DNA of 33,117 bases from a virus (IMGVR_UViG_3300027804_000146:1-33117); one strand, 5' to 3'. Shown: positions 7,531-28,702, counted from the stretch's first letter. Translations and numbers: made by a program. The notes: generated by a model from the sequence alone, not told the origin.

Positions 7531-9735
7531 ATGGCAATTAGAATTCAGTTACGTAGAGACACCGCCGCAAATTGGGTATCATCAAATCCAACACTTCGAG
7601 CAGGTGAGATTGGTATTGAAACAGATACCCTTAAATTTAAAATTGGTAATGGGTCTAGCACATGGACACAAATTACCGCATATGCAAATGTTACTCCATC
7701 AGGATTATCATCAAGTCTAGGAAGCTATATTCTTGCTTCTAGCCAAGGCGTGGCAGGCGGACCAGCAGAACTAGATTCAAATGGCGATTTAATTATTCCA
7801 GAAAACTCAGTAATTCTTTGGAATGATGCAGATTATGACTACACAACAACTTTAACAGCTACTCAGCCTACAGCAGATAGAACAATTACTTTTCCAAATC
7901 TAAGCGGAACAGTAGTAACTACAGGAGACACAGGCTCAGTAACAAATACAATGCTTGCAGGATCAATTGCAAATAGTAAGCTTACAAATTCATCTGTAAC
8001 AATTAATACAAATTCTTTATCTCTAGGTGGAAGCCTTACTCTAGATACTGATGATGTTCTAGAAGGCACAACAAATAAATATTTTTCAGATGAGTTGGCG
8101 CAAGATGCGGTGGCAGCAGCATTAGCTGCAGGAACCCATACTAATATTACTGTAACATACAATGACAATGCTAATTCAATTAGCCTTGCAGCCGCTCCAG
8201 GATATACAAATGAAGAGGCACAAGATGCAGTAGGAAATTCCGTTGGAAACGGATTAGATTATGATGATTCAACAGGTGCAATATCTGTAGACCCATCTGA
8301 ATTTGCCCTTAGTGCAGTTGGAGTTCCAACAGCAGATGTATCTTTAAACTCATATAAGATTACAAACTTAGCATCTCCTACACAAGCTGGAGATGCTGCA
8401 AATAAAGCATATGTAGATAATACTACAGCTGGAATTAACTTTCATTCTCCAGCACATGCAGCAACAACAACTAACCTAGCAGTAATTTATGATAATGGAA
8501 CAAATGGTGTAGGAGCTACACTTACTGCTGATACATCTCGTGCCTGGAATGGCATTGATTCACATACAACATTTAATGTTGGCGACAGAATTCTTGTAAA
8601 GAATCAGACAGACGCTTCACAAAATGGTATGTATACTCTTACCCAATTAACTGCTCCATGGATTTTAACCCGTGCAACAGATGCAGATAATTCTCCAGCA
8701 GGAGAGCTTGCATATGGAGACTTTGTGTTCGTACAAAATGGCGGACAAGCAGGATATGGATTTGTTGTAAATACAACAGGTACAATTACAATTGGAACCA
8801 CAAACATCAACTATGTTCAGTTTAATGCTGGACAGGTAGTAGTTGCAGGAAATGGTTTACAAGAAGCAGTTGCTGGTACATTGTCAATTGATACTACAGT
8901 TACAGTAGATTTAAATACAGCACAAACGCTAACAAATAAAACAATTACAGGAACATTTACTGGTAACGTAACTGGTGATGTTTCAGGAAATGCAGGAACT
9001 GTAACAAATGGAGTTGTAACTGCAGGATCTTATTCAGACCCTTCTTGGATTACATCTTTAGCTGCTTCAAAGGTAGGCCTAGGTAATGTTGAGAATACAG
9101 CATTATCAACATGGGCTGGAAGTACAAATATTACAACCCTAGGAACAGTTTCAACTGGAACATGGAATGCAACTGCAATTGGTACAACTAAAGGCGGAAC
9201 AGGATTAACATCTTATACATCTGGAGATATTCTATATGCTTCTGCTACAGACACCCTTGCTAAATTAGCTAAGGGTACAGATGGACAAATATTAACATTA
9301 GCTTCAGGGGTTCCTTCTTGGGCAGCCGCTCCAATTACTCTTCCAACACAAACAAATAATTCTGGAAAGTATTTAACAACAGACGGAACAACTGCTTCTT
9401 GGGCAACACTAGTTGTTCCAATTGAAACAGGAACTGCAACAGTAACTGCTGATACAGCAACTACAATAGATACAACTGCACTATCAGCATTTACATCTAT
9501 TGAGTATATGGTTTCTCTAAAGCAAGGTTCAAAGGTTAGAACATCCAAAGTTGTTGTTCAGACCGATGGAACTTCTGTAGATATGACAGAGTTTGCAATT
9601 ACAGAAACTGGTGGAGCAATGACAGGAGTAGTAGTTTCAGCAGCAGTTTCTTCAACAAATGCAGTACTACAGGCAACTGTAACAGATGCATCAAGCACAA
9701 ATGTAACCGTTAAATTTAGTAAAGTAAAGCTCTAA
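7531..9735 (+). CDS. long tail fibre with major-tropism-determinant N-terminal (Mtd_N / HylP-like) domain (734 aa)
   Basis: IRIQLRRDTAANWVSSNPTLRAGEIGIETDTLKFKIGNG...W matches Mtd_N. Also ADRTITFP, TDDVLEGTTNKYF, EEAQDAV repeats, [18 protein letters not shown] and GGTG repeats. Confidence 0.85.
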   Translation: MAIRIQLRRDTAANWVSSNPTLRAGEIGIETDTLKFKIGNGSSTWTQITAYANVTPSGLSSSLGSYILASSQGVAGGPAELDSNGDLIIPENSVILWNDADYDYTTTLTATQPTADRTITFPNLSGTVVTTGDTGSVTNTMLAGSIANSKLTNSSVTINTNSLSLGGSLTLDTDDVLEGTTNKYFSDELAQDAVAAALAAGTHTNITVTYNDNANSISLAAAPGYTNEEAQDAVGNSVGNGLDYDDSTGAISVDPSEFALSAVGVPTADVSLNSYKITNLASPTQAGDAANKAYVDNTTAGINFHSPAHAATTTNLAVIYDNGTNGVGATLTADTSRAWNGIDSHTTFNVGDRILVKNQTDASQNGMYTLTQLTAPWILTRATDADNSPAGELAYGDFVFVQNGGQAGYGFVVNTTGTITIGTTNINYVQFNAGQVVVAGNGLQEAVAGTLSIDTTVTVDLNTAQTLTNKTITGTFTGNVTGDVSGNAGTVTNGVVTAGSYSDPSWITSLAASKVGLGNVENTALSTWAGSTNITTLGTVSTGTWNATAIGTTKGGTGLTSYTSGDILYASATDTLAKLAKGTDGQILTLASGVPSWAAAPITLPTQTNNSGKYLTTDGTTASWATLVVPIETGTATVTADTATTIDTTALSAFTSIEYMVSLKQGSKVRTSKVVVQTDGTSVDMTEFAITETGGAMTGVVVSAAVSSTNAVLQATVTDASSTNVTVKFSKVKL

Positions 9736-9747
9736 GGGAGGAATTAA

Positions 9748-10470
9748 GTGGCAGATAAAAACTTTAAAGTTAAATCTGGATTAAATATCCCGATTACTTC
9801 CGCTGCTATTCTGACCACCGATTCAAGCGGTAATATTTCTTCTACTGCAGTTCTTCCAATTACAGCAGGCGGAACAGGACAAACATCAGCAACTAACGCT
9901 ATCAATGCCTTGCTTCCAGTACAAAATGGATCTACAGTTAACTATTCAATCCAGTCAGATGGAACAAACATTTCCTGGGCTAAGGTATATAATCAAGTAG
10001 TTCAAAATGCAGGAGTTTCCGTAAATCCACGTAGAATAGTAAATTTTGTAGGAGCGGCATTTACAGATAGTTCTGAAACAGATACTACAACAATTACTTT
10101 ATCTCCTACGCCTAAATATCAAACATCTGCCCCATCTGATCCAGTAGTTGGACAAATTTGGGTGGATTCAGATGATGATGTAACTACATTTAACCCATAT
10201 ATTATTAGCAGAAATAAGTTTACAGCCACAGCTGGGCAGACCACATTTGCTACAACACAATCTTTTATTCAAGGATACGAACAAGTATTTCTTAATGGTA
10301 TACTTTTGGTATATGGAGATGACTATACAACTCCTACTACATCCTCCGTCGTTTTATCTTCTGGAGCAGCAGTCGGAGATTCAGTAGAAATTATTATTCA
10401 AACTAATTTATCCGCATATATAGTTGAAACGCCTCTTAGGGCCTCAACATTTATGTTGATGGGGGCATAA
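9748..10470 (+). CDS. fibre adaptor class A, copy 1 (MADKNFKVKSGL; 240 aa)
   Basis: GGTG segment, APSDPVVGQIW half-knob, TATAGQT..QVFLNG..DYT domain. Ends FMLMGA and lacks the GW-ending module of A2/A3. Confidence 0.75.
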   Translation: MADKNFKVKSGLNIPITSAAILTTDSSGNISSTAVLPITAGGTGQTSATNAINALLPVQNGSTVNYSIQSDGTNISWAKVYNQVVQNAGVSVNPRRIVNFVGAAFTDSSETDTTTITLSPTPKYQTSAPSDPVVGQIWVDSDDDVTTFNPYIISRNKFTATAGQTTFATTQSFIQGYEQVFLNGILLVYGDDYTTPTTSSVVLSSGAAVGDSVEIIIQTNLSAYIVETPLRASTFMLMGA

Positions 10471-10814
10471 TGGCAACAGAAGTATTTAAGATACTAGGGC
10501 AGGTAGCACCAGGAACAACTAATACAGCATTGTATACCGTTCCAACAGGCAAGTCTGCAGTCATATCAACCATTGCTGTATGTAATCAAACATCTTCTGA
10601 TGTAACATTCAGAATTGCTACACAAAGAGCAGCAGATGCCTCAACATCTACAATTTTAGCTAAACAATATATTGCGTATGGTTCAACAGTAGCTGCCAAC
10701 GACACAACATTTGTCACTATCGGAGCTACGCTTGCGGCGGGAGATCAAATAATAGTCTATGGATCTTCTTCTAGTCTTTCATTCAACGCATATGGCTCCG
10801 AGGTGACTCCATAA
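10470..10814 (+). CDS. small beta-rich virion/fibre connector (114 aa)
   Basis: KILGQ..P....LYTVP....ISTIAVCN...FRIA...TLAAGD...SFNAYGSE; TAATG-coupled on both sides. Confidence 0.65.
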   Translation: MATEVFKILGQVAPGTTNTALYTVPTGKSAVISTIAVCNQTSSDVTFRIATQRAADASTSTILAKQYIAYGSTVAANDTTFVTIGATLAAGDQIIVYGSSSSLSFNAYGSEVTP

Positions 10815-12379
10815 TGGCAGTAAGTAAATTAAATCCTTCAGCAGGTGGCATTCCATACGGAGATAATGCAGGTCGTCCTGCAAATCCAGACACTGGAAGA
10901 TTATATTCAAACGGAGAAGCTTCCAGACTTGAGCTTTATACCACTACAGGTTGGCAGAATATTGTGCAAGAAACTCCTGGAGTTGTTTCTGTTTCTGGAG
11001 TTTATAATGAGTCTGCCGCATCAAATACATTAACAGTAAATGGTACAAATTTTGCAGCAGGAGCTGTAGCTTATGCAATCGGAACCAATGGAATAGATTA
11101 TCAAGCTTCAACAACAACATTAAATTCTATAGTACAGCTCACAGCAGTATTTTCTAATTTATCTGAATCCTATGAGCCATACGATATTAAAGTTGTAAAT
11201 CCATCAAATCTTTATGGAACATTGCCAGATGCTTTTTATATAAATCAGTCACCTATATGGTCAACAGCTTCAGGCTCCCTGGGAACCTTTGGTTCTGCAA
11301 AGTCTGTCACCACTAGTTCACTTTCTTCATCTGACCCAGAATCTACAACAATTACATACTCTTCTTCAAATTTGCCAGTTTGGTTATCTTTAAACTCATC
11401 AACTGGTGTTTTAACTGGAACTAGTCCATCAGTAACATCTAGTACCACATATTCTTTTAGCATTACAGCTTCAGATGGTGCAAATAATATACCACGGAAT
11501 TTTAGTGTTACAGTAAACGCAACTCCAGTTGTTAGTGGTGGGACTTTGTCTTCAGATTCAACTTACTACTACAGAACATTTACTGGAACTGGAACACTTC
11601 AGGTTGCTAACATATCTTTAACATCAGATATAATGACAGTTGCAGGCGGAGGAGGCTCAAGTACTCACTCAAGCGTAGATGGCGGAGGAGGCGGTGCAGG
11701 AGCAGGTGGATTACTTTATTCTTCATCTACTTCAATGCCAGTAGCTTCATACTCAGTTACAATTGGCGGCGGAGGCGGCAATCGGTCAAACGGAACAAAT
11801 ACAACAGTTTCTGGTAGTTCGGTTTCTTTAACTGCAATTGGAGGCGGTGCAGGAGGATCTTATTCAAACTTTAATGCAAATTCTGGTGGCTCTGGAGGTG
11901 GACAAGCAGGTGCAATGACAACATCTTTAGCATCTGGAACATCTGGACAGGGAAATCCAGGAGGATATGGTGGACAGGGTAATCCACAATATGGCGGAGG
12001 CGGCGGCGGAGGCGCTGGTGGTGCTGGAGGAAGCACAAATACTGATGCTCCAGGAGCTGGAGGAGACGGATCTTCCCTATATTCTTCTTGGGGAGTAGCA
12101 ACATCGACTGGACACAATGTTGGCGGTACACGCTATTACGCAGGCGGAGGCGGCGGAGGAACACGATCTGCTTCTTATGCCGCTGCATTTTCTGGTGCAT
12201 CTGGTGGCAATGGTGGCGGCGGAACGGGATCTGGAAATCAAAATAGCAATACTCCAACAAATGGTTTAACAAATACAGGAGGAGGCGCTGGAGGATCATC
12301 AACAAACCCAAATGCTACGGCAACAGGTGGTTCTGGCATAGTAATATTTAGATACACAAAAGCTTCGGTGGGTGATTAA
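10814..12379 (+). CDS. adhesin tip class E, copy 1: Ig-like domains + glycine-rich head (521 aa)
   Basis: GIPYGDNAGRPANP knob; IPT/TIG-like GTNF..EPYDIKVVNP; putative Ig (SDPE..LPVWLSLN..TGVLTG); poly-Gly runs ending GGSGIVIFRY. Confidence 0.8.
   Translation: MAVSKLNPSAGGIPYGDNAGRPANPDTGRLYSNGEASRLELYTTTGWQNIVQETPGVVSVSGVYNESAASNTLTVNGTNFAAGAVAYAIGTNGIDYQASTTTLNSIVQLTAVFSNLSESYEPYDIKVVNPSNLYGTLPDAFYINQSPIWSTASGSLGTFGSAKSVTTSSLSSSDPESTTITYSSSNLPVWLSLNSSTGVLTGTSPSVTSSTTYSFSITASDGANNIPRNFSVTVNATPVVSGGTLSSDSTYYYRTFTGTGTLQVANISLTSDIMTVAGGGGSSTHSSVDGGGGGAGAGGLLYSSSTSMPVASYSVTIGGGGGNRSNGTNTTVSGSSVSLTAIGGGAGGSYSNFNANSGGSGGGQAGAMTTSLASGTSGQGNPGGYGGQGNPQYGGGGGGGAGGAGGSTNTDAPGAGGDGSSLYSSWGVATSTGHNVGGTRYYAGGGGGGTRSASYAAAFSGASGGNGGGGTGSGNQNSNTPTNGLTNTGGGAGGSSTNPNATATGGSGIVIFRYTKASVGD
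10859..10889 (+). repeat. 31-bp exact direct repeat (second copy 21136-21166; partial copy from 27138)
   Basis: GGAGATAATGCAGGTCGTCCTGCAAATCCAG near the 5' ends of E1 and E2. Confidence 0.9.
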
Positions 12380-12783
12380 TGGCTAAAACAGTTAAAATTT
12401 GGAACGGTACAGAATGGGTAGATCTTGGAGTAAAAGCTGCTCTTCCTCCTGATTATATAGATTCTACTGCTCTTAATTCCGCCCTTGCTTCATATAAGCA
12501 AGAAGTAAATCTTACAGTATCATCTAACATAACATTAGTGGCGGGACGCAGATATTTTGTTGATACATCAGCTGCTAGAACATTAACACTTCCTGCAAGC
12601 CCAACACTTGGGCAAGAAATTGTAGTTGTAGATGCAGCTGGTACAGCTGGAACAAATAACATTACAATTAATTCAAACAGTGGTAAAATTAACGGTACAG
12701 TACAAAACCTTACAATTGACGTAGATGGAGCAGGCGCTTCATTAATATATACAGGATCTGCATATGGCTGGAGGGTAGGATAA
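12379..12783 (+). CDS. fibre adaptor class D, copy 1 (134 aa)
   Basis: N-terminal VKIWNGTEW; module YFVDTSAARTLTLPASP..G...D......NNITI..N..KING...YTGS..GWR. Confidence 0.75.
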   Translation: MAKTVKIWNGTEWVDLGVKAALPPDYIDSTALNSALASYKQEVNLTVSSNITLVAGRRYFVDTSAARTLTLPASPTLGQEIVVVDAAGTAGTNNITINSNSGKINGTVQNLTIDVDGAGASLIYTGSAYGWRVG

Positions 12784-14507
12784 TGGCAATTAGTTTTTCT
12801 AGTTTATCTGGCGGTACATCATTTACAGTAGTCACATCTACAGGCGGATCTAAGACGGCTACTCTTGATAAGTCATATCCAGCAGGAACATATTTAATTG
12901 AATCTAAAGCATTAGATACAAACCTAGAAGTATATCTAGGAGCATCAGATGGCACCCCCGTAGGATCGGCGGTGGCAGGAGCAAAAACAGTTACAGCTAC
13001 TTCATCCTTCCTATATGTAACAACAGTAAATGCAGATGCCAATGATGCCGTTATATTTACATTAAAGTCAGCGGCAACTCTTGCAACTAAAACAGATGCT
13101 ACATGGGCTCCTCCAACAATTACAGATATTACTCCAAGCGGTCTACCAAATGCCAATGATACAACAACTATTACAGGCACAAACTTTGCTTCAAACGCTA
13201 CTGTTAAATTTCGTAAATCAGATGATGCTACATTAGTAAATGCTAAAACAACAGTTAGAGGATCTGCAACATCTATTATTGCAGGTCGTCCTGATTCATT
13301 TGCAGTCGGAGATGCACCATATGACGTAATTGTTACAAATCCAACCACAACATTATCTGCAACATCATTAAATGCAATTACTGCAGGAGCTGTGCCAGTT
13401 TGGGTTACATCTACAACATTAAATCAGGCAGTTGGAGAATCAGCATTTTCACAAACAATTCAAGCAACTGATGCAGACGGAAGTTCATCAATAACATATG
13501 CAATTGTGTCTGGATCATTGCCAACAGGACTTTCTTTAAATGCATCAACTGGAGCAATAACTGGAACTCCAGCTGGAACTAGTGGTACTTATACAGTAAC
13601 AATTTCAGCAACAGATTCTGGTAATAACTCAGTAAATAGAACATTTACTCAAGTTCTTTCAAATACAATTTCAGTTGAATATTTGCTTATTGCAGGCGGA
13701 GGAGCACCAGCTCGTGACCACGCAGGTGGAGGTGGAGCTGGAGGTCTATTAACAGGAACATATACAGCTGCACAAGCTACTACTTATAATTTTACTATTG
13801 GGGCAGGTGGAACAGGAGGAACTTCTGTTAATGGTGGCAGCGGTTCCAATGGAACAAATTCAACAGCATTCGGTCTTACCTCTATTGGTGGCGGAGGTAG
13901 CCCAGCGGGTAACAGTTCTGCAGGATCTGCTGGTGGTTCTGGCGGTGGAGGTAATGGTACAAATTCAACAATACAGGCAGGTGGAGCAGGGACTTCTGGA
14001 CAAGGTTACGCTGGTGGTAGGGGTGGAAGTGTTAGCGGAAGTACAACAGTAGAACCTGGCGGAGGTGGAGGAGGAGCTGGAGGCGCAGGGCAAGATGCCC
14101 CAACAAATGTAGGTGGAGCTGGTGGAGTTGGTTTTTATAATTCATTGACTAATGCAATGGGTGCAGCAGTAAGTGCTGGACAGCTAAGTGGTGGAAACTA
14201 CTATTTTGCAGGCGGAGGTGGAGGCGGAACTAATGCTAATAACAATTCAGACTCATCAGGAGGTCTTGGTGGTGGAGGAAATGGTAAAGGCGGAATCGGT
14301 ATTGGTGCTAATGGAACCACAAATACAGGTGGCGGAGCTGGATCAGGCGGAAATGGTGCAGACTCTGGAAATGGCGGTTCAGGAATACTTATTATTCGTT
14401 TTCCGTCAACTGTTATAGTATCTGCAACTACTGGCTCTCCGACAACTGCAACTACTGGCGGATATAAATATTACAAATTTACATCAAACGGGAGTATAAC
14501 TTTTTAA
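12783..14507 (+). CDS. adhesin tip class F: IPT/Ig domains + glycine-rich head (574 aa)
   Basis: PTITDITP..TITGTNF; ATDADG..SGSLPTGLSLN; VEYLLIAGGG..poly-Gly..GGYKYYKFTSNGSITF. Confidence 0.8.
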   Translation: MAISFSSLSGGTSFTVVTSTGGSKTATLDKSYPAGTYLIESKALDTNLEVYLGASDGTPVGSAVAGAKTVTATSSFLYVTTVNADANDAVIFTLKSAATLATKTDATWAPPTITDITPSGLPNANDTTTITGTNFASNATVKFRKSDDATLVNAKTTVRGSATSIIAGRPDSFAVGDAPYDVIVTNPTTTLSATSLNAITAGAVPVWVTSTTLNQAVGESAFSQTIQATDADGSSSITYAIVSGSLPTGLSLNASTGAITGTPAGTSGTYTVTISATDSGNNSVNRTFTQVLSNTISVEYLLIAGGGAPARDHAGGGGAGGLLTGTYTAAQATTYNFTIGAGGTGGTSVNGGSGSNGTNSTAFGLTSIGGGGSPAGNSSAGSAGGSGGGGNGTNSTIQAGGAGTSGQGYAGGRGGSVSGSTTVEPGGGGGGAGGAGQDAPTNVGGAGGVGFYNSLTNAMGAAVSAGQLSGGNYYFAGGGGGGTNANNNSDSSGGLGGGGNGKGGIGIGANGTTNTGGGAGSGGNGADSGNGGSGILIIRFPSTVIVSATTGSPTTATTGGYKYYKFTSNGSITF

Positions 14508-14536: not shown

Positions 14537-14572
14537 ATAAAGAAGCAAGACAACTAACAAAGGAGAAAAAAA

Positions 14573-14953
14573 ATGGCACATTTCGCAGAAATCGACGAGA
14601 ACAATATAGTTACTCGTGTTCTAGTAGTAAACGACGCCGATGCAGCTGATGGACAGAATTTTCTGGCTAACACCTTGGATCTTGGCGGAACATGGATACA
14701 GACTTCATACAACACTTCAGGTGGAGTACATTCAAATGGCGGGACCCCGCTAAGAAAGAATTACGCTGGAATTGGATATTCATACGACGCAGTTCGTGAT
14801 GCATTTATCCCACCAAAGCCTTTCGCTTCATGGATACTAAATGATGACACATGTCTTTGGGAAGCCCCAACACCAATGCCTGTTGAAGAAGGCAAGATGT
14901 TTAGATGGGTAGAAGAAGATTTAAACTGGCAAGAAGTAGTAATCGGAGAGTAA
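14573..14953 (+). CDS. conserved small acidic/Trp-rich protein, putative partner or assembly factor of Gly-rich fibre heads (126 aa)
   Basis: MAHFAEID..WIQTSYN..RKNYAGIGYSYD..DAFIPPKPF.SW....CLWEAP.PMP. Recalled as commonly adjacent to Gly-rich phage proteins; function is inferred. Confidence 0.6.
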   Translation: MAHFAEIDENNIVTRVLVVNDADAADGQNFLANTLDLGGTWIQTSYNTSGGVHSNGGTPLRKNYAGIGYSYDAVRDAFIPPKPFASWILNDDTCLWEAPTPMPVEEGKMFRWVEEDLNWQEVVIGE

Positions 14954-14958
14954 TATAA

Positions 14959-16635
14959 TTGACAAGGGCTAGAGACGTTGCCAACGTACTCTCAACCGCC
15001 ACTAATTTAGCGACGGATACAGAGACTGCGGCAGCTATCTCTAGCCACAATTCTGCAACAACATCAGTTCACGGAATATCAGATACATCAGCATTAGCAA
15101 CACAGACTTATGTTCAAAATAATAAGGGAATAAATAAAGGCAATACTGCCTCACGTCCCGCATCTCCTGCAAATGGAGATTTATATTATAATACAGAAAC
15201 ATCTACTCTTGAAGTATATGATGCAGGATGGTGGCTTGCAAATACAACTCCAGGAATTCCTACATCACCAGTTGCAACAAATCAACCTTCATCACGAGCA
15301 TTTAATAACGGGCAAGCTTCAGTAGCATTTACCCCAGCAACAAGCGGCGGAAAAGCAACATCATTTACAGTTACTTCAACACCAGGATCATATACAAATA
15401 CAGGTTCATCTAGTCCTATCGTAGTTACTGGTTTGCAATCAAATACAGCATATACTTACGCAGTTACAGCAACTGGACCAATTGGAACATCTTCTGCATC
15501 ATCTGCGAGTAGCGCAGTTACTGCAACTACAGTTCCACAAGCTCCGAGTATTACATCCGTAACAGGAGGAAATGCACAGGTATCTGTGGCGTTTTCTGCA
15601 AATGCTACTGGTGGTTCATCTATTACAGGATATACAGTAACATCTAGCCCAGGAAACTTAACAGCAACTGGATCATCAAGTCCACTTGTTGTAACGGGTT
15701 TAACCAACAATACTTCATACACATTTACAGCAACTGCAACAAACGCAAATGGAACCTCTGCAGCAAGTTCTGCAAGTAGCTCAGCTACTCCTACAAATGG
15801 AACTTCAATTGAGTATTTGGTTATTGCAGGAGGAGGAGCAGGTGGCGGATATGCAGGAGGCGGAGGCGGCGCTGGAGGAGTTTTGTATAATTCATATTTA
15901 GTTCCAATTGCAGAAGCTTTAACAATAACAATAGGTGGCGGAGGTGCTGGAGCTGGATATTTTGCAACTGCAACATCAGCATCTAATGGAACAAATTCAT
16001 CAATAGTTGGATCAACAACTTCTATTGTCACAACAGGCGGTGGCGGTGGCAGACATGGTGAGAATAGAGGGGGCGTTGCAGCTTTTGACGGAGGTTCTGG
16101 CGGTGGAGGAGCCTCTGGTATAGCTCAATCTGGATTAGGTGTTGCTGGTCCTCCAAGACAAGGGTATAACGGAGGTCAATCTAGCACTACTGGAGGAAAT
16201 GGCGGTGGCGGCGGAGGCGCTGCAGCAGCTGGTTCTCCTAGCGATAGTTCTGGTCTTCCAGGAAATGGTGGCGCAGCAACAAATGCATATTCAGTATGGG
16301 CTTCAGCAACATCTTCTGGTGTAAGCGGTTCATACGCAGGCGGAGGTGGCGGAGGTAGAGATGGAACAGATGCTGGCTCTACTGGCGGCGGTGGCGGAGC
16401 AACTAATGGAGCAACTAGAAATGCAATGAATTCATCTTCAGCATCTGCAAATACTGGTTCTGGATCAGGCGGAGGCGGAGGATATCAAAGCGCATCTTCT
16501 GGAAATGGAGGATCTGGAATTGTAATAATTAGAACAGCAGATTCCTTAACAACAGCAACTCACAATGGATCATTTTATAATACTGGCGGATACAAGTACT
16601 ACAAATTTACAGCATCAGGGAGTATAACCTTCTAA
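14959..16635 (+). CDS. adhesin tip class C, copy 1: 2x fibronectin type III + glycine-rich head (558 aa, TTG start)
   Basis: MTRARD N-terminus; RPASP knob; two SP(I/L)VVTGL....Y(T)..AT FN3-like repeats; IEYLVIAGGG..GGYKYYKFTASGSITF. Confidence 0.8.
   Translation: MTRARDVANVLSTATNLATDTETAAAISSHNSATTSVHGISDTSALATQTYVQNNKGINKGNTASRPASPANGDLYYNTETSTLEVYDAGWWLANTTPGIPTSPVATNQPSSRAFNNGQASVAFTPATSGGKATSFTVTSTPGSYTNTGSSSPIVVTGLQSNTAYTYAVTATGPIGTSSASSASSAVTATTVPQAPSITSVTGGNAQVSVAFSANATGGSSITGYTVTSSPGNLTATGSSSPLVVTGLTNNTSYTFTATATNANGTSAASSASSSATPTNGTSIEYLVIAGGGAGGGYAGGGGGAGGVLYNSYLVPIAEALTITIGGGGAGAGYFATATSASNGTNSSIVGSTTSIVTTGGGGGRHGENRGGVAAFDGGSGGGGASGIAQSGLGVAGPPRQGYNGGQSSTTGGNGGGGGGAAAAGSPSDSSGLPGNGGAATNAYSVWASATSSGVSGSYAGGGGGGRDGTDAGSTGGGGGATNGATRNAMNSSSASANTGSGSGGGGGYQSASSGNGGSGIVIIRTADSLTTATHNGSFYNTGGYKYYKFTASGSITF
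15138..15180 (+). repeat. 43-bp direct repeat with 2 mismatches (second copy 19153-19195)
   Basis: AGGCAATACTGCCTCACGTCCnGCnTCTCCTGCAAATGGAGAT in C1 and C2. Confidence 0.85.
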
Positions 16636-20494: not shown

Positions 20495-20751
20495 TGTACA
20501 TACTATTTAACAGCATAGAAGAGTTTAATGAATGGCATTCAGGAATTAAGTCTATTTTAAATATACCTTCTGAAGACGGAGCTACATTAGAATACACTGT
20601 TGCTATATCAAGTGTTATAAATTTAGACCCTAGAGTTGTTGCAAGCTTCACACATGGAGATTTTGAGACCGATGGATTAAATTTAATAAGCATAGAAAAC
20701 ATATTTGATTCTGGAATATTGACTAGAATTGAGGTGGAGCATAATGGCTAA
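20494..20751 (+). CDS. small acidic protein coupled to the LamG-headed tip (85 aa)
   Basis: TAATG overlap with the C2 stop. Present only in the cassette copy that carries the LamG head. Confidence 0.65.
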   Translation: MYILFNSIEEFNEWHSGIKSILNIPSEDGATLEYTVAISSVINLDPRVVASFTHGDFETDGLNLISIENIFDSGILTRIEVEHNG

Positions 20752-21097
20752 TACTATTAATGTATGGGATGGAACAGAGTGGAAGACTCTGGCTACCGCC
20801 CTGCCTGTTCCAGAAACTATAGCACAGGCAGTATCTTCAAATATTACTATGGTTGCAGGCAGCGAATACTTTGTTAATACATCTGCTGCTAGAACGCTGA
20901 CATTGCCAGCATCTCCAAGCCTGGGTGACAAGGTAACAATTTATGATGCATCAAATTCGGCGGGCACAAACAATATTACAATAGATTCAAATGATGGTAA
21001 AATTAATGGTACGGTACAAGATGCTATTATGGACGTAAACGGTGCAGTACATACACTTGTTTATACTGGCTCAAGTTATGGATGGAGATTTTTATAA
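20744..21097 (+). CDS. fibre adaptor class D, copy 2 (117 aa)
   Basis: Start reassigned to ATG 20744 (GAGGTGGAG RBS; MANTINVWDGTEW aligns with D1/D3); ends GWRFL. Confidence 0.75.
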   Translation: MANTINVWDGTEWKTLATALPVPETIAQAVSSNITMVAGSEYFVNTSAARTLTLPASPSLGDKVTIYDASNSAGTNNITIDSNDGKINGTVQDAIMDVNGAVHTLVYTGSSYGWRFL

Positions 21098-22662
21098 TGG
21101 TAATTAGATCATCAAGTTCTAGCGGAATTCCTTTTGGAGATAATGCAGGTCGTCCTGCAAATCCAGGAACTGGTCAATTATATTCAAATGGAGAATCTCA
21201 AAGATTAGAGCTTTATACAGCTTCGGAATCCTGGGAAAATATTGTCCAAGAAGTCCCAGGAGTATCATCTATTTCTGGAAATTATTCAGAAGCAACAGAT
21301 TCAGGTGTTATTACCATTTATGGAACTAATTTTGTAAATGGCGCATTTGCAACTGCAATTGGTTCTAACGGAGCTCAGATAAACGCTAATTCTACGGTGT
21401 ACAATTCTTTAGTTCAGTTGACAGCAACATTTACAGGGCTATCAAATCAATATGAACCATATGATATCAAGGTTACAAATCCATCTAACCTATTTGGAAT
21501 TATTCCAGATGCATTATATGTAAATGCTAGCCCAGTATGGGTTACATCAAGTGGCTCTTTAGGAACATTCAACGAACGGGTAAGTATTACTTTATCAGCA
21601 CTATCAGCATCAGACTCAGATTCCACAGTGACATTTGCATTGCAATCAGGATCTTCACTTCCTTCTGGAGTTAGTTTAAATTCCACAACTGGAGTTATTT
21701 CAGGAACACTTCCAAACATTACAACAGATACAACATATACATTTACAATTAATGCTACTGATGGAGTAAATACTATTCCAAGAACATTTAGCATAACCTC
21801 TTTAGCCGTAGTTACTTCTGAAATATTAGTTGTTGCAGGCGGCGGAGGAGGATCTTCTATTATTGGCGGAGGCGGAGGAGCTGGTGGAGTAATTTCTAGC
21901 TCTAGCACAGTTTTCAGACGTGCAACTTCAATCACTGTTACAGTTGGAGCTGGAGGTAGGGGTGGATATGGATATACTGGAGGAAATGATACAGAGGCTG
22001 GATATCCAGGATATAACTCAGTACTTGGCTCCAATGTAGCGATTGGCGGAGGTGGAACTGTTGGTTGGGACACAACAGCAGTCCCAGCACTTTCGGGACA
22101 ACTTTCATGGACTAGAAATGGTGGTTCTGGCGGAGGCGGAAGCGGAACAAATGGTAACAGTAATTATCAAACTGGAGGAACGGGAACTTCTGGTCAAGGA
22201 AACAACGGCGCAAATGGCTCTGATCCAAATGGCGCAGGCGGCGGCGGAGCTGGCGCCGCAGGAAGTGGACTTAATGGTGGCATAGGAATTCAATCTTCAA
22301 TCACTGGAACACCAACTTATTATGGCGGAGGCGGTGGCGGAGGCCGTAGAATATCTGGTGCAGGAAATGGTCCATCTTCTGGCGGTTCAGGCGGTGGTGG
22401 TGCTGGAATGAGTGGCTCAACATTTAGCTCTAACCAAAATGGTAGTGCAAATACTGGCGGCGGTGGCGGAGGAGGAAATTATTCAGGTCCATCAGCTGGC
22501 GATCAAGCAGGTGGCAATGGTGGCTCTGGCGTAGTAATTATTGCATATCCAGACACTGAGTCAGCATTAACAGTTTCTAATGGACTAACATATGATCAAC
22601 CAACTCGTTCAGGATATCGTGTTTATCGGTTTACAGCGGGAACAGGAACAATTACTTTCTAA
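21097..22662 (+). CDS. adhesin tip class E, copy 2: Ig-like domains + glycine-rich head (521 aa)
   Basis: Start at TAATG overlap; GIPFGDNAGRPANP, EPYDIKVTNP, LPSGVSLN, poly-Gly, ends GYRVYRFTAGTGTITF. Confidence 0.8.
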   Translation: MVIRSSSSSGIPFGDNAGRPANPGTGQLYSNGESQRLELYTASESWENIVQEVPGVSSISGNYSEATDSGVITIYGTNFVNGAFATAIGSNGAQINANSTVYNSLVQLTATFTGLSNQYEPYDIKVTNPSNLFGIIPDALYVNASPVWVTSSGSLGTFNERVSITLSALSASDSDSTVTFALQSGSSLPSGVSLNSTTGVISGTLPNITTDTTYTFTINATDGVNTIPRTFSITSLAVVTSEILVVAGGGGGSSIIGGGGGAGGVISSSSTVFRRATSITVTVGAGGRGGYGYTGGNDTEAGYPGYNSVLGSNVAIGGGGTVGWDTTAVPALSGQLSWTRNGGSGGGGSGTNGNSNYQTGGTGTSGQGNNGANGSDPNGAGGGGAGAAGSGLNGGIGIQSSITGTPTYYGGGGGGGRRISGAGNGPSSGGSGGGGAGMSGSTFSSNQNGSANTGGGGGGGNYSGPSAGDQAGGNGGSGVVIIAYPDTESALTVSNGLTYDQPTRSGYRVYRFTAGTGTITF

Positions 22663-22680: not shown

Positions 22681-22715
22681 TAAATAACAAACAACTAGGG
22701 GAAATGTGAACTTAG

Positions 22716-23582
22716 ATGGCAAATAAAGACTTTAAGGTCAAGAATAAACTTGTTATAGCAGGTTTAACTAATGCTAATGGCGTTTTATTAGCCGAAGGAC
22801 ATACTGTTGATTCCCACACAAATTTAGCTACACAATATGGTGGAACTGGAACAACAACCTCTCCTACTTCTGGACAAGTATTATACTCAACATCTGGCAC
22901 AACATATGCCCCAACAACTCTTGCAGATTTAGTAACTGGTGCAAAATATCAGGCAGATGCTCCTACATCTCCTTCAGTTGGACAGATATGGATTGAGTCA
23001 GATTCTACTTCAGATTCATTTGATCCAAATCTTGTACGCCGTCAGGCATTTACTGCAACGGCAGGACAAACAGTATTTACTACAACAGTTAACTTTATAG
23101 AAGGATATGAGCAGGTATACTTTAACGGCCTCCTTCTTTTGCGTACTACAGATTACACAACATCAAATTCAAATACAGTTACATTAGGTGCAGCGGCGGC
23201 AGTAAATGATATTATCGAAGTAGTAACAATAACAAATCTTAATTCAACTAATACATATACTCAGTCTGAGATAACTGGATATCTAGCAAACAAGAAGACT
23301 GAGATATCATCATCAATTTCAGGTGATACAGGATTATTGGCGGGAAGAAGATATTTTGTAACTTCTGCTTCCGACCTTACATTAACATTGCCAGGAAGCC
23401 CAGCAGTAAATGACGAAATTCAAATACTAGATGCTTCTGGAAACGCTTCGACGTATAATATAACAGTAAACAGAAATAATAAATTAATTAATGGAAATGC
23501 AGGCAATTTTATCATTGACGTAAATGGCTCATGGTATACCCTTGTATTTACAGGTAACACATATGGTTGGAAGGTGGCATAA
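22716..23582 (+). CDS. fibre adaptor class A, copy 3 (288 aa)
   Basis: MANKDFKVKNKL; APTSPSVGQIW; TATAGQT..QVYFNG..DYT; ends FTGNTYGWKVA. Confidence 0.75.
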   Translation: MANKDFKVKNKLVIAGLTNANGVLLAEGHTVDSHTNLATQYGGTGTTTSPTSGQVLYSTSGTTYAPTTLADLVTGAKYQADAPTSPSVGQIWIESDSTSDSFDPNLVRRQAFTATAGQTVFTTTVNFIEGYEQVYFNGLLLLRTTDYTTSNSNTVTLGAAAAVNDIIEVVTITNLNSTNTYTQSEITGYLANKKTEISSSISGDTGLLAGRRYFVTSASDLTLTLPGSPAVNDEIQILDASGNASTYNITVNRNNKLINGNAGNFIIDVNGSWYTLVFTGNTYGWKVA

Positions 23583-25150
23583 TGGCTGATTTAAGAGCAT
23601 CTGGTTTAGGTGGAGTTCCAAAAGGAACCACATCAGATCGCCCATCATCCCCATCAGTTGGAGACGTATTTTATAATGGTGATTTAGGTTACATGGAAAT
23701 GTATACAGCACAAGGATGGTTTGCTGCTACTCCAATTAACCCAGGAATTCCAACATCTGTTGTTGCAACAAACTCTGGAACATCTAGAGCATTTAATAAT
23801 GGACGGGCATCTGTAGCATTTAACGTAGGAACAGATGGTGGACTACCAACATCATTTACTGTAACATCGTCTCCTGGTTCATATACGACAACTGGATCTT
23901 CTAGTCCTTTGGTCGTAACTGGATTACAGTCATCAACTCAGTATACCTACACAGTTACAGCAACAAATAATTTTGGAACATCTTTATCTTCATCTGCAAG
24001 TACTGCAGTGACTGCAACTACTGTTCCTGCTGCTCCAAGTATTTCAGCTACTACTGGAAATACACAAGCTGCTATTACAATTACACCTGGAGCCACAGGT
24101 GGTTCATCTATTACACAATATTCAATTGTATCAAATCCAGTAACCACAACACAAACAACATCAAACACATCTTATACTTTTACAGGTCTAACAAATGGAA
24201 CTAGCTATACATTTACTGCAACTGCGACAAATGCAAATGGAACATCGTTATCAAGTTCTGCAAGCAATAGCATAACTCCAGTATACGTAATTCCAGCAGA
24301 CTTTTTGGTTGTAGGCGGAGGAGGCGGCGGAGGCTTTGATAATGGTGGCGGCGGTGGAGCGGGTGGTTTCCGTACATCTGCTGGAACTTCTGGAAGAAAC
24401 TCAAGCGCAGAAAATGCTTTATCTTTATCTCCTAATAATTCATATACTATAACAGTAGGTGCAGGTGGTGTAGGAACTTCTGATACAGACGTTTCAAGTC
24501 AAAGCAGCGGAATTAGTTCATCTATTTCTGGAACTGGAATAACAACAATCACGTCTTTAGGTGGAGGAAAAGCTGGTCGGAATGGTTCTCCTCCTTCTGA
24601 CGGTGGTTCAGGCGGCGGAGTTTGGCGTGTAGCTACAAGCCCAGGATCAGGAACCGCTGGTCAAGGTTATGAAGGAGGCACAGGATACGTAGGCATTTGC
24701 GGTGGCGGTGGCGGTGGTGCTGGACAAGCAGGTCAAGCAGCAACATCTATGTCTGGAGGTAATGGTGGCAATGGACTTCAATCATCAATTACAGGAACTG
24801 CAATTTATTATGCAGGCGGTGGAGGAGGTTCTGTTGAAGTAAATAATTCTTCAGTAGTAATGGGTCAAGGTGGACTTGGTGGTGGCGGAACTTCTGGAGG
24901 TCGCTACTTTGGAACAAACTCGCCAGGTTATGCAGGTGGTAATGGCGGAACAAACCTTGGTGGTGGAGGAGGAGGAGTTGAATATGGTGGAGGAGGCAAC
25001 TCTACTAAATATGGTAACGGTGGTTCTGGAGTAGTAATTCTTCGGGTTCTACAACAAGCAGCATCAACAACTGGTTCGCCAACCTACACAACTTCAGGAT
25101 CTTATCACATTTACAAATTTACAGGAACAGGAAGTATTACCTTCTCATGA
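23582..25150 (+). CDS. adhesin tip class B, copy 2: 2x FN3 + glycine-rich head (522 aa)
   Basis: MADLRASG at TAATG overlap; FN3 pair; DFLVVGGGG..GSYHIYKFTGTGSITFS. Confidence 0.8.
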   Translation: MADLRASGLGGVPKGTTSDRPSSPSVGDVFYNGDLGYMEMYTAQGWFAATPINPGIPTSVVATNSGTSRAFNNGRASVAFNVGTDGGLPTSFTVTSSPGSYTTTGSSSPLVVTGLQSSTQYTYTVTATNNFGTSLSSSASTAVTATTVPAAPSISATTGNTQAAITITPGATGGSSITQYSIVSNPVTTTQTTSNTSYTFTGLTNGTSYTFTATATNANGTSLSSSASNSITPVYVIPADFLVVGGGGGGGFDNGGGGGAGGFRTSAGTSGRNSSAENALSLSPNNSYTITVGAGGVGTSDTDVSSQSSGISSSISGTGITTITSLGGGKAGRNGSPPSDGGSGGGVWRVATSPGSGTAGQGYEGGTGYVGICGGGGGGAGQAGQAATSMSGGNGGNGLQSSITGTAIYYAGGGGGSVEVNNSSVVMGQGGLGGGGTSGGRYFGTNSPGYAGGNGGTNLGGGGGGVEYGGGGNSTKYGNGGSGVVILRVLQQAASTTGSPTYTTSGSYHIYKFTGTGSITFS

Positions 25151-26679
25151 GCAGAATCAGAGATATAGCAAATATACTAACAGCTGCAAATGTTCTTTCA
25201 ACTGATATTGAAACGGCGGCAGCAATAACAACTGCTATTAATGCTTTACCTCCAGGATATGGAAGAGGTAATACTGCTTCCCGCCCAGCTTCTCCAACAG
25301 TAGGAGACATTTATGTTAATACAGAAACAGGCTTTGTTGAAATTTATGAATCTACAGGATGGTCACCAGTTGGCGGAACTGCATCAACAGTAACTTCAGT
25401 TGTTGCGACAAATGTCGGAACTTCACGGGCATACAATAATGGATCGGCTTCAGTAGCATTTACTCCAGGAACTATCCTTGGTAAAACATATACAGTTACA
25501 TCATCTCCTGGCTCATTTACAGCAAGTGGTTCAAGTTCTCCAGTTGTAGTAACAGGTTTACAATCTTCAACACAGTATACATATACTGTAGTTGCATCAA
25601 ATAATTATGGCACTGCATCTGCAAGTTCCGCCTCAACAGGCGTTACTGCAACAACTGTGCCACAGGCTCCAAGCATTACATCTGTAACGGGAGGAAATGC
25701 ACAGGCTTCTGTTGCATTTTCCGCAAATGCTACTGGCGGATCAAGCATTACGGGATATACAGTTACATCAAGTCCTGGAAACATAACAGCGTCTGGTTCA
25801 TCATCACCAATTGTTGTAACGGGTCTGACAAACGGCACATCTTATACATTTACAGCAGTTGCAACAAACAGTAACGGATCATCTGCAGCAAGTTCTGCAA
25901 GTAGTTCCGTTACACCAGTTTCATTCACAGCTACTGGGGGAACAACAGTTACATCTGGCGGTTATAAATACCATACATTTACTGGCAGTGGAACTTTTTC
26001 TGCCACAGGCTCTTCTTCAGTAGAAGTGTTAGTGGTTGCAGGAGGAGGAGCAGCAGGAGATGGTCATGGCGGCGGAGGCGGAGCTGGAGGATTATCTTAT
26101 CATTCTGCTAAGTCTTTATCTACAGGTAATTATACAGTTACTATAGGTGGAGGAGCGCCAGGAGTTTCTGGAGGTTACAGACTTGGAGATAATGGAGTAA
26201 ATTCATCATTTTCAGATATAGTTTCAAACGGTGGTGGTGGTGGGGCAGCAGGAGCTAACAGTGGAACTGCAAGGGCAGGTGGTTCAGGTGGAGGAAGCTC
26301 AATTAATGGATATGGTTCAAATGTTTCAAATCAAGGAAATACTGGTGGAGCGATAGGTTACGGAAATTCAGGCGGAGGAAATGGTTCAGATCATGGCGGA
26401 GGTGGCGGTGCTGGAACAGCAGGCGTAACTGGATCTACTGCAGACGGTGGAGACGGCAAATCAGATTTTTCAGCTTGGGGAGTCGCTACTAGTACAGGAG
26501 AAAATGTTTCAGGAACTTATTATTATGCTGGAGGTGGATGTGGTGCATCTACAGGAAGAGGTGGTTATGGCGGCGGAGGAGCAGCTGGTGTTAACGGAAC
26601 TACAAATACAGGTGGTGGCGGTGGAGGAAATGCTGGATCTGGTGCTTCAGGAATTGTAATTGTGAGGTACCCAGTATAA
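25147..26679 (+). CDS. adhesin tip class C, copy 3: 2x FN3 + glycine-rich head (510 aa)
   Basis: MSRIRD; ATGA overlap; FN3 pair; ATGGT..GGYKYHTFTGSGTF..GASGIVIVRYP. Confidence 0.8.
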   Translation: MSRIRDIANILTAANVLSTDIETAAAITTAINALPPGYGRGNTASRPASPTVGDIYVNTETGFVEIYESTGWSPVGGTASTVTSVVATNVGTSRAYNNGSASVAFTPGTILGKTYTVTSSPGSFTASGSSSPVVVTGLQSSTQYTYTVVASNNYGTASASSASTGVTATTVPQAPSITSVTGGNAQASVAFSANATGGSSITGYTVTSSPGNITASGSSSPIVVTGLTNGTSYTFTAVATNSNGSSAASSASSSVTPVSFTATGGTTVTSGGYKYHTFTGSGTFSATGSSSVEVLVVAGGGAAGDGHGGGGGAGGLSYHSAKSLSTGNYTVTIGGGAPGVSGGYRLGDNGVNSSFSDIVSNGGGGGAAGANSGTARAGGSGGGSSINGYGSNVSNQGNTGGAIGYGNSGGGNGSDHGGGGGAGTAGVTGSTADGGDGKSDFSAWGVATSTGENVSGTYYYAGGGCGASTGRGGYGGGGAAGVNGTTNTGGGGGGNAGSGASGIVIVRYPV

Positions 26680-27089
26680 TGGCTAAATTAATCAGAGTAT
26701 GGGATGGAACACAATGGCAATCAGTCGGTGCCGCTTTCCCGTATAGTTATATAACCATTAATGGTGAACAGATAAATCTTGGCGCAAGCGCAACAATTCC
26801 TACTGGTCCTACATCATCTGCAGTATCATCTAATATTACTATGGCTGCAAATTATAATTACTTTGTAGATACTTCAGCGGCAAGAACTTTAACTCTTCCT
26901 GCCAGCCCTGCCCTAGGAGATACCATTGCAATATATGATGCATCAGGGACGGCGGCAACAAATAATATTACAGTAGCAAGAAACGGCAGTAAGATTAACG
27001 GTCAAACAGTTAATGCTATAATTGACGTAGATCAATCAGGCTCAATATTTACTTATACAGGCTCAACGCTTGGGTGGAGGTTCGACTAA
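26679..27089 (+). CDS. fibre adaptor class D, copy 3 (136 aa)
   Basis: MAKLIRVWDGTQW; YFVDTSAARTLTLPASP; ends GWRFD. Confidence 0.75.
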   Translation: MAKLIRVWDGTQWQSVGAAFPYSYITINGEQINLGASATIPTGPTSSAVSSNITMAANYNYFVDTSAARTLTLPASPALGDTIAIYDASGTAATNNITVARNGSKINGQTVNAIIDVDQSGSIFTYTGSTLGWRFD

Positions 27090-28702
27090 TGGCTATTAGA
27101 AAGTCATCAAATTTAGGTATTCCTTTTGGAGGTACTTCAGGTCGTCCTGCAAATCCAGCTAATGGTCAGCCATACTTTAATGGCGATATTGGAAGATTAG
27201 AATTATATACATCTGCTACAGGTTGGCAAAATATTGTGCAGGAAACTCCTGGCGTAGCCAGCGCAACAGGCACTTATAATGAGTCTGCTGGATCTGGCAC
27301 ATTCACAGTTTCTGGAACAAATTTTGTATCTGGAGCTATCGCATATGCTGTTGGAACAAATGGTGTTGAATACGAAGCAGCATCAACTACTTATAATTCT
27401 TTAGTTCAATTAACTGTTACATTTTCAAATTTATCAGTTGCGTATGAACCATATGATATTAAAGTTATAAATCCATCAAACCTGTTTGGATTACTTCCAG
27501 ATGCGTTCTATATTAATGATAATCCAGTGTGGTCAACATCAGCAGGCTCCCTTGGAACATTTAATTCTGGAAGCTCAGTAAGCTTACAGTTATCTGTAAC
27601 AGATGATGAATCTAACTCATTAACATATACCGTTTCTTCAGGATCTCTTCCTGGAGGTTTGTCGCTATCTTCAGCAGGTTTAATTTCTGGAACAATTGTT
27701 GCAACTAGTGGCACATCATCATTTACGGTATCAGTATCTGATGGGAACAATCCGAGCCAAACAAGATCGTTTAGTATAACATGTTTAGCACCAGTAGTTA
27801 CTGGTGGAACTCTAACATCTGACTCAACTTATTATTACAGAGCTTTTACTGGAAGCGGAACATTAGCAGTTTCTAATGCATCTTTAACAGCTGATCTATT
27901 GATTGTTGCTGGAGGTGGTCCAGGAGGAGGAAACCTTGCTGGTGGAGGCGGAGCTGGAGGCTACAAGGCATACACTTCTTATTCTATTCCAGCAGCATCT
28001 CATTCGGTAACAATTGGCGCTGGCGGCGCAAGAGTACAAGGATCTCAGACTGGAGGAAGAGGATCTAATGGAACCAACACCTCTCTAGGAAGTATATTTA
28101 CTTGCATAGGAGGAGGAGCTGGTGGTTCAGGAGAACCAGGATCTGAATTCAATGGACTTTCTGGAGGATCTGGTGGAGGATCAACTGGCTATACCGCTTC
28201 TGTAACAAGAGCATCTGGTACATCTGGACAGGGTTACGATGGTGGAGTTTCTGGAAGAGGAGGACCAAATTATCCAGGAGCTGGGGGAGGAGGTTCTTCC
28301 GCACAAGGAGAAGATGTTTCAAATTCTAATAATAGAGCTGGAGATGGCGGAGCAGGAACTCTAAACGCAATACTTGGAACAAACTATTATTGGGCAGCAG
28401 GAGGCGGCGGAGGAATTTATGTGGCTGGATCAACTAGAGCTGGTAATGGAGGCATTGGCGGTGGCGGAGGCGGAGGCTCTAACGGTTCCGCTGCTGGAAC
28501 AGGTGGAGGAAGTGCTTACAATTCTGGTTTAAGTGGTACTGCTGTAAACACAGGTGGCGTAAGTACAGGAAACACTGGTGGTGATGCTGGAGCAAATACT
28601 GGCTCTGGTGGTGGAGGAGCATGCCATAGTGCTAGCACTGGTGGTGCAGGCGGTTCTGGAATTGTAGTTGTTCGTTATACAAAAGCAGCAGTTGGCGGTT
28701 AG
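27089..28702 (+). CDS. adhesin tip class E, copy 3: Ig-like domains + glycine-rich head (537 aa)
   Basis: Start at TAATG overlap; GIPFGGTSGRPANP, EPYDIKVINP, SGSLPGGLSL, VTGGTLTSDSTYYYRAF..GGSGIVVVRY. Confidence 0.8.
   Translation: MAIRKSSNLGIPFGGTSGRPANPANGQPYFNGDIGRLELYTSATGWQNIVQETPGVASATGTYNESAGSGTFTVSGTNFVSGAIAYAVGTNGVEYEAASTTYNSLVQLTVTFSNLSVAYEPYDIKVINPSNLFGLLPDAFYINDNPVWSTSAGSLGTFNSGSSVSLQLSVTDDESNSLTYTVSSGSLPGGLSLSSAGLISGTIVATSGTSSFTVSVSDGNNPSQTRSFSITCLAPVVTGGTLTSDSTYYYRAFTGSGTLAVSNASLTADLLIVAGGGPGGGNLAGGGGAGGYKAYTSYSIPAASHSVTIGAGGARVQGSQTGGRGSNGTNTSLGSIFTCIGGGAGGSGEPGSEFNGLSGGSGGGSTGYTASVTRASGTSGQGYDGGVSGRGGPNYPGAGGGGSSAQGEDVSNSNNRAGDGGAGTLNAILGTNYYWAAGGGGGIYVAGSTRAGNGGIGGGGGGGSNGSAAGTGGGSAYNSGLSGTAVNTGGVSTGNTGGDAGANTGSGGGGACHSASTGGAGGSGIVVVRYTKAAVGG

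Follow-up and report, generated by a model that had tools for sequence, protein, structure and literature searches.

The viral sequence IMGVR_UViG_3300027804_000146:1-33117, a 33-kb phage fragment analysed over its whole length of 33,117 nucleotides (hereafter the window), carries a block of fibre genes of about 24 kb (4793-28702) that probably encodes an accessory fibre, non-covalently assembled and branched in several tiers, of a siphovirus likely to infect actinobacteria; the subunits of this fibre would be placed by peptides at their N-termini. All the genes of the block lie on the + strand. The original prediction had proposed a tree of adhesins in which the start peptides of nine tips (plugs) fit nine candidate sockets, and its inventory was borne out: nine tip genes, five modules ending in GW, three TAGQT domains and three tips with an MxRxRD start are all present where they had been placed. 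The tree begins further upstream than 7531, the limit first proposed, at 4793. The hierarchy of plugs and sockets is supported by homology to known branching domains, by gene adjacency, by co-varying gene counts and by one model of a TAGQT domain with an MxRxRD peptide, but its exact bookkeeping is not general.

The joint that could be modelled links the TAGQT domain to the C tips. The domain is found in three proteins, A1 (9748..10470, domain at ~10189-10413), A2 (16635..17420, ~16905-17126) and A3 (22716..23582, ~23019-23243), which have, as had been noted, a common start motif (the A plug). The model of the A3 domain (predicted local distance difference test, pLDDT, 83) superimposes on CBA120 TSP4 187-250 (7rfv; Z 9.5, root-mean-square deviation, rmsd, 1.4, 64 aligned) and on the N-terminal domains of podovirus fibres (9efk; Z 10.3, rmsd 3.1, 68 aligned); its fold is also that of T7-like fibre N-termini, tied in Z with XD2/XD3, and its sequence matches the tandem domains of 9k4a (E 0.003). 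The modelled domain thus has the gp10-like XD2/XD3 branching-domain fold, and XD2 and XD3 are established sockets of gp10 and TSP4 (PMC8825819). The three MxRxRD tips are C1 (14959..16635, 558 amino acids, aa), C2 (19034..20494, 486 aa) and C3 (25147..26679, 510 aa). Prediction of a complex of three A3 TAGQT domains with three copies of C3 residues 1-40 gave a score of 0.74, the best of three controls giving 0.00; the score passes a mark reached by 116/157 solved and 2/215 mismatched pairs, counts that are only roughly valid here. The runs had at least 97% of their contacts in common, with a pLDDT of the partner of at least 65, and residues 1-13 of C3 were predicted to dock on the TAGQT trimer through an interface that uses residues invariant in both partners (N66, G67, D75 and D94 of the socket, R5 of the plug). 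The model supports binding of C plugs to TAGQT sockets. Further, in 53 non-adjacent gene pairs from which kinship was not removed, position 4 of the plug shows covariation with positions 68 and 71 of the socket (mutual information, MI, 0.96 for 68 and 0.79 for 71, versus 0.17-0.18).

Relatives of the block were collected from IMG/VR by three scans (best 80 of 86 matches, all 48, and best 80 of 486), which gave 178 loci; with 15 added regions these formed 115 overlap groups and 2104 called genes, and the gene caller reproduced the genes of the window. Adjacency was counted over 1610 distinct adjacent gene pairs, and gene numbers were compared in 20 clusters including the window, 17 of them closed by a LamG gene and three nearly complete, with L012 and L014 counted as separate contigs. 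The original prediction had named independent variation of plug and socket numbers across genomes as an argument against itself; in the relatives these numbers co-vary. The TAGQT domains equal the C genes in number in 12/20 clusters (13/20 before a 49-aa C adaptor was added), with a shuffled mean of 5.5 (26/20000). All seven clusters with a TAGQT domain on the protein that follows the adaptor X (described below) have one C in excess, one cluster has a TAGQT domain and no C, and the sole cluster without TAGQT also has no C. The list of open reading frames and a pattern search both found no missed C gene in L008/L182. At L008:7711-7931, in a TAGQT-bearing cluster without a C gene, a short remnant-like stretch is seen where C would be. 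A second, hidden TAGQT domain was considered as an explanation of surplus C genes, and none was found in two complete genomes. Since strict one-to-one correspondence of TAGQT and C fails, some tips must compete for one socket.

The second kind of socket would be formed by the GW modules. The five GW[RK]xx-ending modules (94 columns, 69% mean column identity) stand at the end of D1 (12379..12783, module 12517-12780), A2 (module 17154-17417), D2 (20744..21097, module 20831-21094), A3 (module 23316-23579) and D3 (26679..27089, module 26823-27086), and each overlaps by one base the next tip, namely F (12783..14507, 574 aa), B1 (17420..19030, 536 aa), E2 (21097..22662, 521 aa), B2 (23582..25150, 522 aa) and E3 (27089..28702, 537 aa), respectively. 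This one-base overlap is not special to these modules, as 13 of the 23 junctions listed have it. A profile of the module matches CBA120 TSP4 91-174 (E 1.7e-10) and, more weakly, proximal subunits of long fibres and gp10, and the model of the D3 module (pLDDT 87) superimposes on TSP4 XD1 (Z 13.7, rmsd 1.7, 92 aligned; Foldseek template modelling score 0.86). Both sequence and predicted fold identify the GW module as XD1, as in CBA120 TSP4. XD1 has been described as a spacer that binds nothing across its axis, since linkers occupy both of its faces (PMC8825819); here it is the last domain, not a mid-chain one, in all five window proteins and in 108 distinct junction pairs, and because it ends the chain one face would be free.

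What follows the GW end in the relatives is highly constrained. In 102/108 pairs the next gene starts with one loose plug motif, 97/103 such starts come after a GW end, and in 0/107 cases does a GW end stand directly before an A, C, D, X or Mtd_N gene. Subtypes of end and plug also go together (GWKV with xD[IL] in 23/26, GWRF with I[RK]KS in 21/23 and GWRV with Ix[YF]S in 23/24), whichever protein carries the module and whichever body follows; the MI between plug subtype and GW terminus is 1.16 bits, compared with 0.15 after shuffling and 0.40 after shuffling within carrier and body classes (0/2000). Of these junctions, 87/108 are one-base overlaps and 21/108 have other spacings (-4, 0, 1, 2, 12 to 57 bases), so that no reading frame is kept across them. 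The start peptides proved less class-specific than first proposed: those of B, E2/E3 and F are variants of this one GW-following motif and E1 starts like other genes that follow X, so that E denotes a class of bodies in which the E1 start differs from that of E2/E3. Two loci (L118:401-9354 and L114:1565-5459) have as many as six tips in series behind a single GW module, all with one and the same GW-type plug, and such series are, as read from the genes, putative arrays of alternative tips for one socket.

A candidate socket for the D proteins, whose joints, like those of the A proteins, had been left out of the original sum of 5+3+1 = 9, has since been found in A. Within the chains of the tips there is a motif of some 44 columns, and a half-motif in A (10129-10167 in A1, 16845-16883 in A2 and 22959-22997 in A3) aligns to columns 9-28 of it, the hairpin start of D aligning to columns 30-43 (profile probability 93 and 94); the starts of C and A gave a probability below 1 against the intact motif. 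The half-motif did not align with Mtd_N (probability 0.5), and the intact motif aligned with it weakly (52). With the first pattern, half-motifs and D genes were equal in number in 16/20 clusters, and the four misses comprised D2 of the window, which has Asn in place of Lys, a variant of D whose leader is longer, and a gene truncated by the edge of its locus. After the pattern was widened and the cut gene added by hand, the numbers, which range from 0 to 6, agreed in 20/20 clusters (shuffled mean 6.0, 0/20000; 17/17 without three near-duplicates), cross pairs agreeing in 5-10/20. These alignments and counts suggest that the half-motif may be completed by the first hairpin of D, in a form of strand complementation. 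In many relatives a second small chain, starting MG[ST]T[SG]KGF and having a C-terminal half-motif followed by a hairpin start, stands before the LamG gene (for example L147:15909-17854, L191:966-3709 and the end of the L124 cluster); the window has none.

Upstream of the arms, a trunk is likely to extend through four more genes with fixed neighbours. These encode a 115-aa Ig-like protein (4793..5140), which might be the root or collar of the tree, a 152-aa trunk segment (5140..5598), a 483-aa fibre segment (5612..7063) and a 153-aa adaptor ending IIDGGAA (7066..7527), a candidate socket for the Mtd_N domain. The 115-aa type is followed by the 152-aa type in 28/28 pairs, the latter by the 483-aa fibre type in 25/25, and this by one start class in 40/40, and a gene ending in [DN]GG precedes an Mtd_N gene in 48/54 pairs. 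The last trunk fibre (7531..9735, 734 aa) has an N-terminal Mtd_N domain (PF18454, E 1.4e-15; LME-1 fibre 9efk, E 2.7e-12), a fibre domain in common with the 483-aa fibre and an unnamed C-terminal domain of about 105 aa (9427-9732), the hub, for which no Pfam family was found among its Atlas neighbours; neither the hub nor X has a named family. The signals on how the trunk is anchored differ, the 115-aa protein matching phrog_1084 (E 2.9e-25) and weakly phrog_3304, 'L-shaped tail fiber protein assembly' (E 6.6e-7), with BppU_N below the cut-off and a single weak sequence match among solved structures (E 0.013), and the 483-aa fibre matching phrog_2647, 'head decoration' (E 2.3e-50).

That A1 follows the C-terminal domain of the Mtd_N fibre, as the original prediction had pointed out, is a rule in the relatives, where a gene ending in the hub is followed by an A gene in 43/44 pairs. 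One hub domain was found in each of five records, and all 20 clusters have three A genes, exactly one of them of the KN[KR]L type (in one cluster the third A had to be identified manually). It is unlikely that A1, A2 and A3 form a heterotrimer: many relatives have the TAGQT domain or XD1, which need three copies, on one A only. The A1 protein was rightly described as lacking the GW module and ending FMLMGA; it is followed by X (10470..10814), a 114-aa protein with matches to phrog_1276 and unnamed viral clusters, and then by E1 (10814..12379, 521 aa; He_PIG, Gly_rich_2), and in the relatives a gene ending in LMG precedes X in 41/45 pairs. X may act as a two-sided adaptor between A1 and the X-type plug of E1. 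Modules are also swapped among the relatives: A starts are fused straight to heads, C starts stand on a GW adaptor or on [DN]GG adaptors of 49-73 aa, the TAGQT domain occurs on the protein following X, and the cassette of half-motif, TAGQT and GW is found behind a different start and is still followed by B, C, D and E.

Several oddities were seen around these genes. The one hub follower that is not a standard A (L044:663-2123) is a tip rich in glycine whose start, MARKNFR, might be a fourth plug of the A kind, and proteins of L111 (group 69/70) and L127 have an A-like start peptide and a hub-domain end, which suggests recursion in a related lineage. In L044 (2837-3340) and L101 X is separated from its follower by an inserted 167-aa gene that starts with CxxC and looks, by eye, like an endonuclease; the follower, though no longer adjacent to X, has retained its plug. 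Genes that from their starts look, by eye, like glycosyltransferases, methyltransferases, kinases and oxygenases occur among the fibre genes of L147:13052-15875, L181, L182 and L008:14464-15222, and their products could modify the fibres.

Put together, these joints would give the following structure. A linear trunk (115, 152, 483 and 153 aa, then the Mtd_N fibre) would end in the hub, which would take three A arms. Each arm would offer two side sockets, the XD2-like TAGQT trimer for one C trimer, as modelled, and the half-motif for a D protein, and an end socket, which would be the XD1 trimer for B on A2 and A3 and the LMG peptide with X for E1 on A1; each D, ending in XD1, would in turn take E2, E3 or F. 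Gene order would then list successive subtrees, A1(X-E1, D1-F, C1), A2(B1, C2, D2-E2) and A3(B2, C3, D3-E3), the assignment of each C and D to its A resting on gene position. In those relatives that have more plugs than sockets, tips would take each other's place on separate copies of an arm. The tips are likely to bind receptors on the host surface. The joints other than that of TAGQT and C, the location in the virion and the binding of receptors are our inference. The equality of nine sockets and nine plugs is true of the window, but an exact match of sockets and plugs fails in some of the relatives, as the TAGQT and C counts and the series of plugs behind one GW module show. The strongest form of the scheme, a recursive, address-coded tree with at least six orthogonal peptide-socket pairs, a three-way hub holding one arm of each of three types, XD1 as a terminal socket with a subtype code, a beta-motif divided over two proteins, free fusion of every plug to every socket or head, nine tips displayed at once and module swaps that rewire host range, can be put forward tentatively, at somewhat less than even chances.

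A number of observations weigh against this reading. Mid-chain XD1 has been described as a spacer to which trimeric partners do not bind (PMC8825819). The GW end and the plug lie within about 30 bases of each other, so that their covariation could arise through linkage only, and the codons of GW[RK] are able to serve at the same time as ribosome-binding site of the next gene. Several GW-type plugs stand behind one GW module in three loci (L006, L114 and L118), TAGQT and C numbers differ in 8/20 clusters, a complete genome has one TAGQT domain and two C genes with no further TAGQT elsewhere, and an incomplete cluster has at least four A genes. The controls of the complex prediction were unrelated proteins, not non-cognate plugs, and its pass may reflect likeness to solved XD2 complexes. 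Finally, the clusters are related to one another and were collected with queries derived from the window, kinship being ignored by the shuffles, four counts were set by hand and the D pattern was widened after its misses had been seen.

The main rival, which overlaps with the branched fibre proposed here, accepts the joints but has the hub hold one A arm at a time, so that A1-A3 and the surplus C or GW-type tips would alternate and the result would be several simpler fibres on each virion, or a mixed population, in place of a single tree with nine tips. It is possible, if rather doubtful: the one hub domain per genome in five of five records, set against three A genes, speaks for it, as do the occurrence of surplus plugs and the 3:3 stoichiometry of the modelled TAGQT-C joint, with one partner per socket, but three A genes with one KN[KR]L in every cluster is a tighter rule than free alternatives need, and a single arm would still branch through its TAGQT and half-motif sites. 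It is unlikely that linkage, recombination breakpoints and translational coupling explain the gene order, each protein attaching to the virion alone and the modules serving as spacers or in a chaperone-like role. The contiguity of GW end and plug in the DNA, the prevalence of one-base overlaps at GW junctions and the spacer role of XD1 (PMC8825819) would fit such a view, yet non-adjacent pairs (half-motif with D, TAGQT with C) match in number too, two halves rebuild one known in-chain motif, the complex model passes, and when carrier and body are exchanged the plug remains paired with its upstream end. That the proteins act on the surface of the infected cell, in exclusion or adhesion, and are not virion parts is very improbable; the block does lie apart from the tail operon, and fibre genes for the tail tip exist separately in a relative, but the domains match virion fibres, the glycine-rich head of Pam3 gp24 belongs to a virion fibre (PMC9608196), and no clear membrane segment was found (highest 19-residue hydropathy 1.67 among 24 proteins). 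Covalent joining of neighbours by frameshift or read-through at the overlaps, without docking, to which the frequent one-base overlap and the in-chain continuation of homologous XD1 in TSP4, gp10 and gp34 might point, is hardly credible and was rejected on the variable spacing of the GW junctions, and fusion leaves C and D unexplained, as their sockets lie within the chains of genes that do not adjoin them.

Eight of the nine tips match Gly_rich_2 (PF21722) together with FN3 or Ig domains, FN3 being found in B1, C1 and C2 and Ig in E1, E2 and F, and glycine-rich heads were confirmed for eight (29-35% Gly in the last 250 aa) but not for C2, which has just 8% and whose C-terminal end matches phrog_10356. 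Pfam and PHROGs gave no lyase or tailspike family in any of the nine tips, and the glycine-rich head of B2 had no match in a sequence search of solved structures. Two small genes accompany the tips. The 126-aa protein (14573..14953; phrog_7759) goes with glycine-rich tips, 65/88 genes of its type coming directly after a glycine-rich gene, and is likely a chaperone or cap; a sequence search of solved structures gave nothing meaningful and no PDB relative. The 85-aa protein behind C2 (20494..20751) matches no family and is possibly a partner of C2.

The phage itself can be placed with the help of the genes around the block. Its portal protein is 57-60% identical to those of Streptomyces phages, and its genes for a glycosyltransferase, a ribonucleotide reductase, the 585-aa protein, a small protein and the portal follow each other as in Streptomyces phage Enygma (Stanwilliamsviridae). 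In Enygma a single gene takes the place of the holin-sized gene and the 24-kb block. The right border of the block is the 585-aa LamG protein (28706..30463, +), kept also in phages without the block and 23% identical over its length to Enygma gp44 (E 3e-24). Two complete relatives measure about 107 kb, and WhiB was found in both of them and in 2/5 of the records searched. Portal, gene order and WhiB all identify the lineage, at the level of sequence comparison, as an actinophage related to Stanwilliamsviridae, and its hosts would be actinobacteria. In 50,697 records, matches to A3 over 80% of its length and matches to the hub domain were both absent from cultured phages. A relative (G001) has a complete tail operon of the siphovirus type that includes fibre genes for the tip, which argues that the block encodes an accessory structure. 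In this operon (L197:1907-4672 and 4673-7594) the tail-tip fibre has a half-motif of this kind at its end, and the next gene, of 973 aa, is rich in FN3; a split joint might therefore be used in the main tail fibre as well.

In the window, an SLT-type lytic transglycosylase (PF18896) lies at 778-1335 (-), and a 74-aa holin-sized gene at 4493-4717 (+) is flanked by a good promoter-like site (4406-4434) and a terminator-like hairpin (4739-4768); promoter and terminator scans were near shuffled levels (43 versus 34.9 and 12 versus 7.4). Sampled words of the sequence were present at 92-94% in four freshwater runs from one study, and two freshwater runs from one study, maybe of the source sample, gave contigs identical to the window across the junctions E1/D1, C1/A2, B1/C2, C2/D2/E2, B2/C3, C3/D3 and D3/E3, none of them spanning the block. 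Because paralogous stretches of the block have diverged to about 60-85% DNA identity and contigs match exactly across junctions, the repeats are unlikely to be an assembly artefact. An RNA run gave scattered short pieces in 19/30 bins and was not used as evidence, and the contigs say nothing on expression.

Branched receptor-binding complexes of several tiers are known from G7C, CBA120, KP32 and phiKp24, and the multi-tier system, for which the original prediction knew of no description, has precedents in this respect (PMC9700779, PMC6872550). TSP1-4 of CBA120 and gp66/gp63.1 of G7C (PMC8825819; PDB 7REJ, 7RFV) have the same XD1 and XD2/XD3 folds, and there trimeric side sockets take another trimer in an ordered branched assembly, as would happen here to judge from genes and models. 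In TSP4, gp9 and gp10, however, XD1 is a mid-chain spacer, whereas here it ends the chain and a conserved plug comes next, and the beta-helix depolymerases of CBA120 and G7C are replaced by FN3/Ig and glycine-rich tips, with small separate connectors and further types of joint. In the Klebsiella phages KP32, K11, KP34, Menlow and PhiK64-1 a short N-terminal peptide docks a secondary protein on a gp10-like domain, different groups having different peptides, and for KP32 this docking was shown by deletion (PMC6872550, PMC13352976); these systems have one type of joint and the block at least six candidate pairs. Since its tips are not depolymerases, the block is not a strict member of the systems built on branching domains and conserved peptides. 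The hyperbranched fibres of phiKp24 (PMC9700779), with primary, secondary and tertiary layers and many tips, resemble it in layering but belong to a jumbo myophage that infects a capsulated Gram-negative host and has depolymerases as tips, whereas the present lineage is a WhiB-bearing one of about 107 kb, related to Stanwilliamsviridae, whose block lies apart from the tail operon. Pam3 gp24-gp25 and T2/S16 gp38 (PMC9608196) also combine a glycine-rich head with a small gene right behind it, here of the 126-aa type, a likeness that is based on description and on the Gly_rich_2 match. Hypervariable 'host recognition clusters' have been described without an assembly code (PMC7029224), and two cultured Nanopelagicales phages have genomes of 39 kb and belong to another group (PMC10202952). 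A literature search, mainly of open-access papers without their supplements, found no description of this system, and what is new in it are the non-enzymatic glycine-rich tips, the several types of joint and the likely actinophage origin.

Known branched receptor-binding complexes have one type of joint and enzyme tips and come from phages of capsulated Gram-negative hosts. If the proposed structure is correct, abundant uncultured actinophages of lakes would mount many non-enzymatic tips by means of a larger set of small, likely orthogonal joints, each peptide-socket pair being small enough for direct testing, and XD1, whose function was 'not yet fully understood' in PMC8825819, would gain a role. 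Gene sequences would then be enough to read the architecture of such fibres, a role would be assigned to many 'hypothetical' genes of hypervariable islands, and a possible mechanism would be at hand by which such phages cope with microdiverse hosts.

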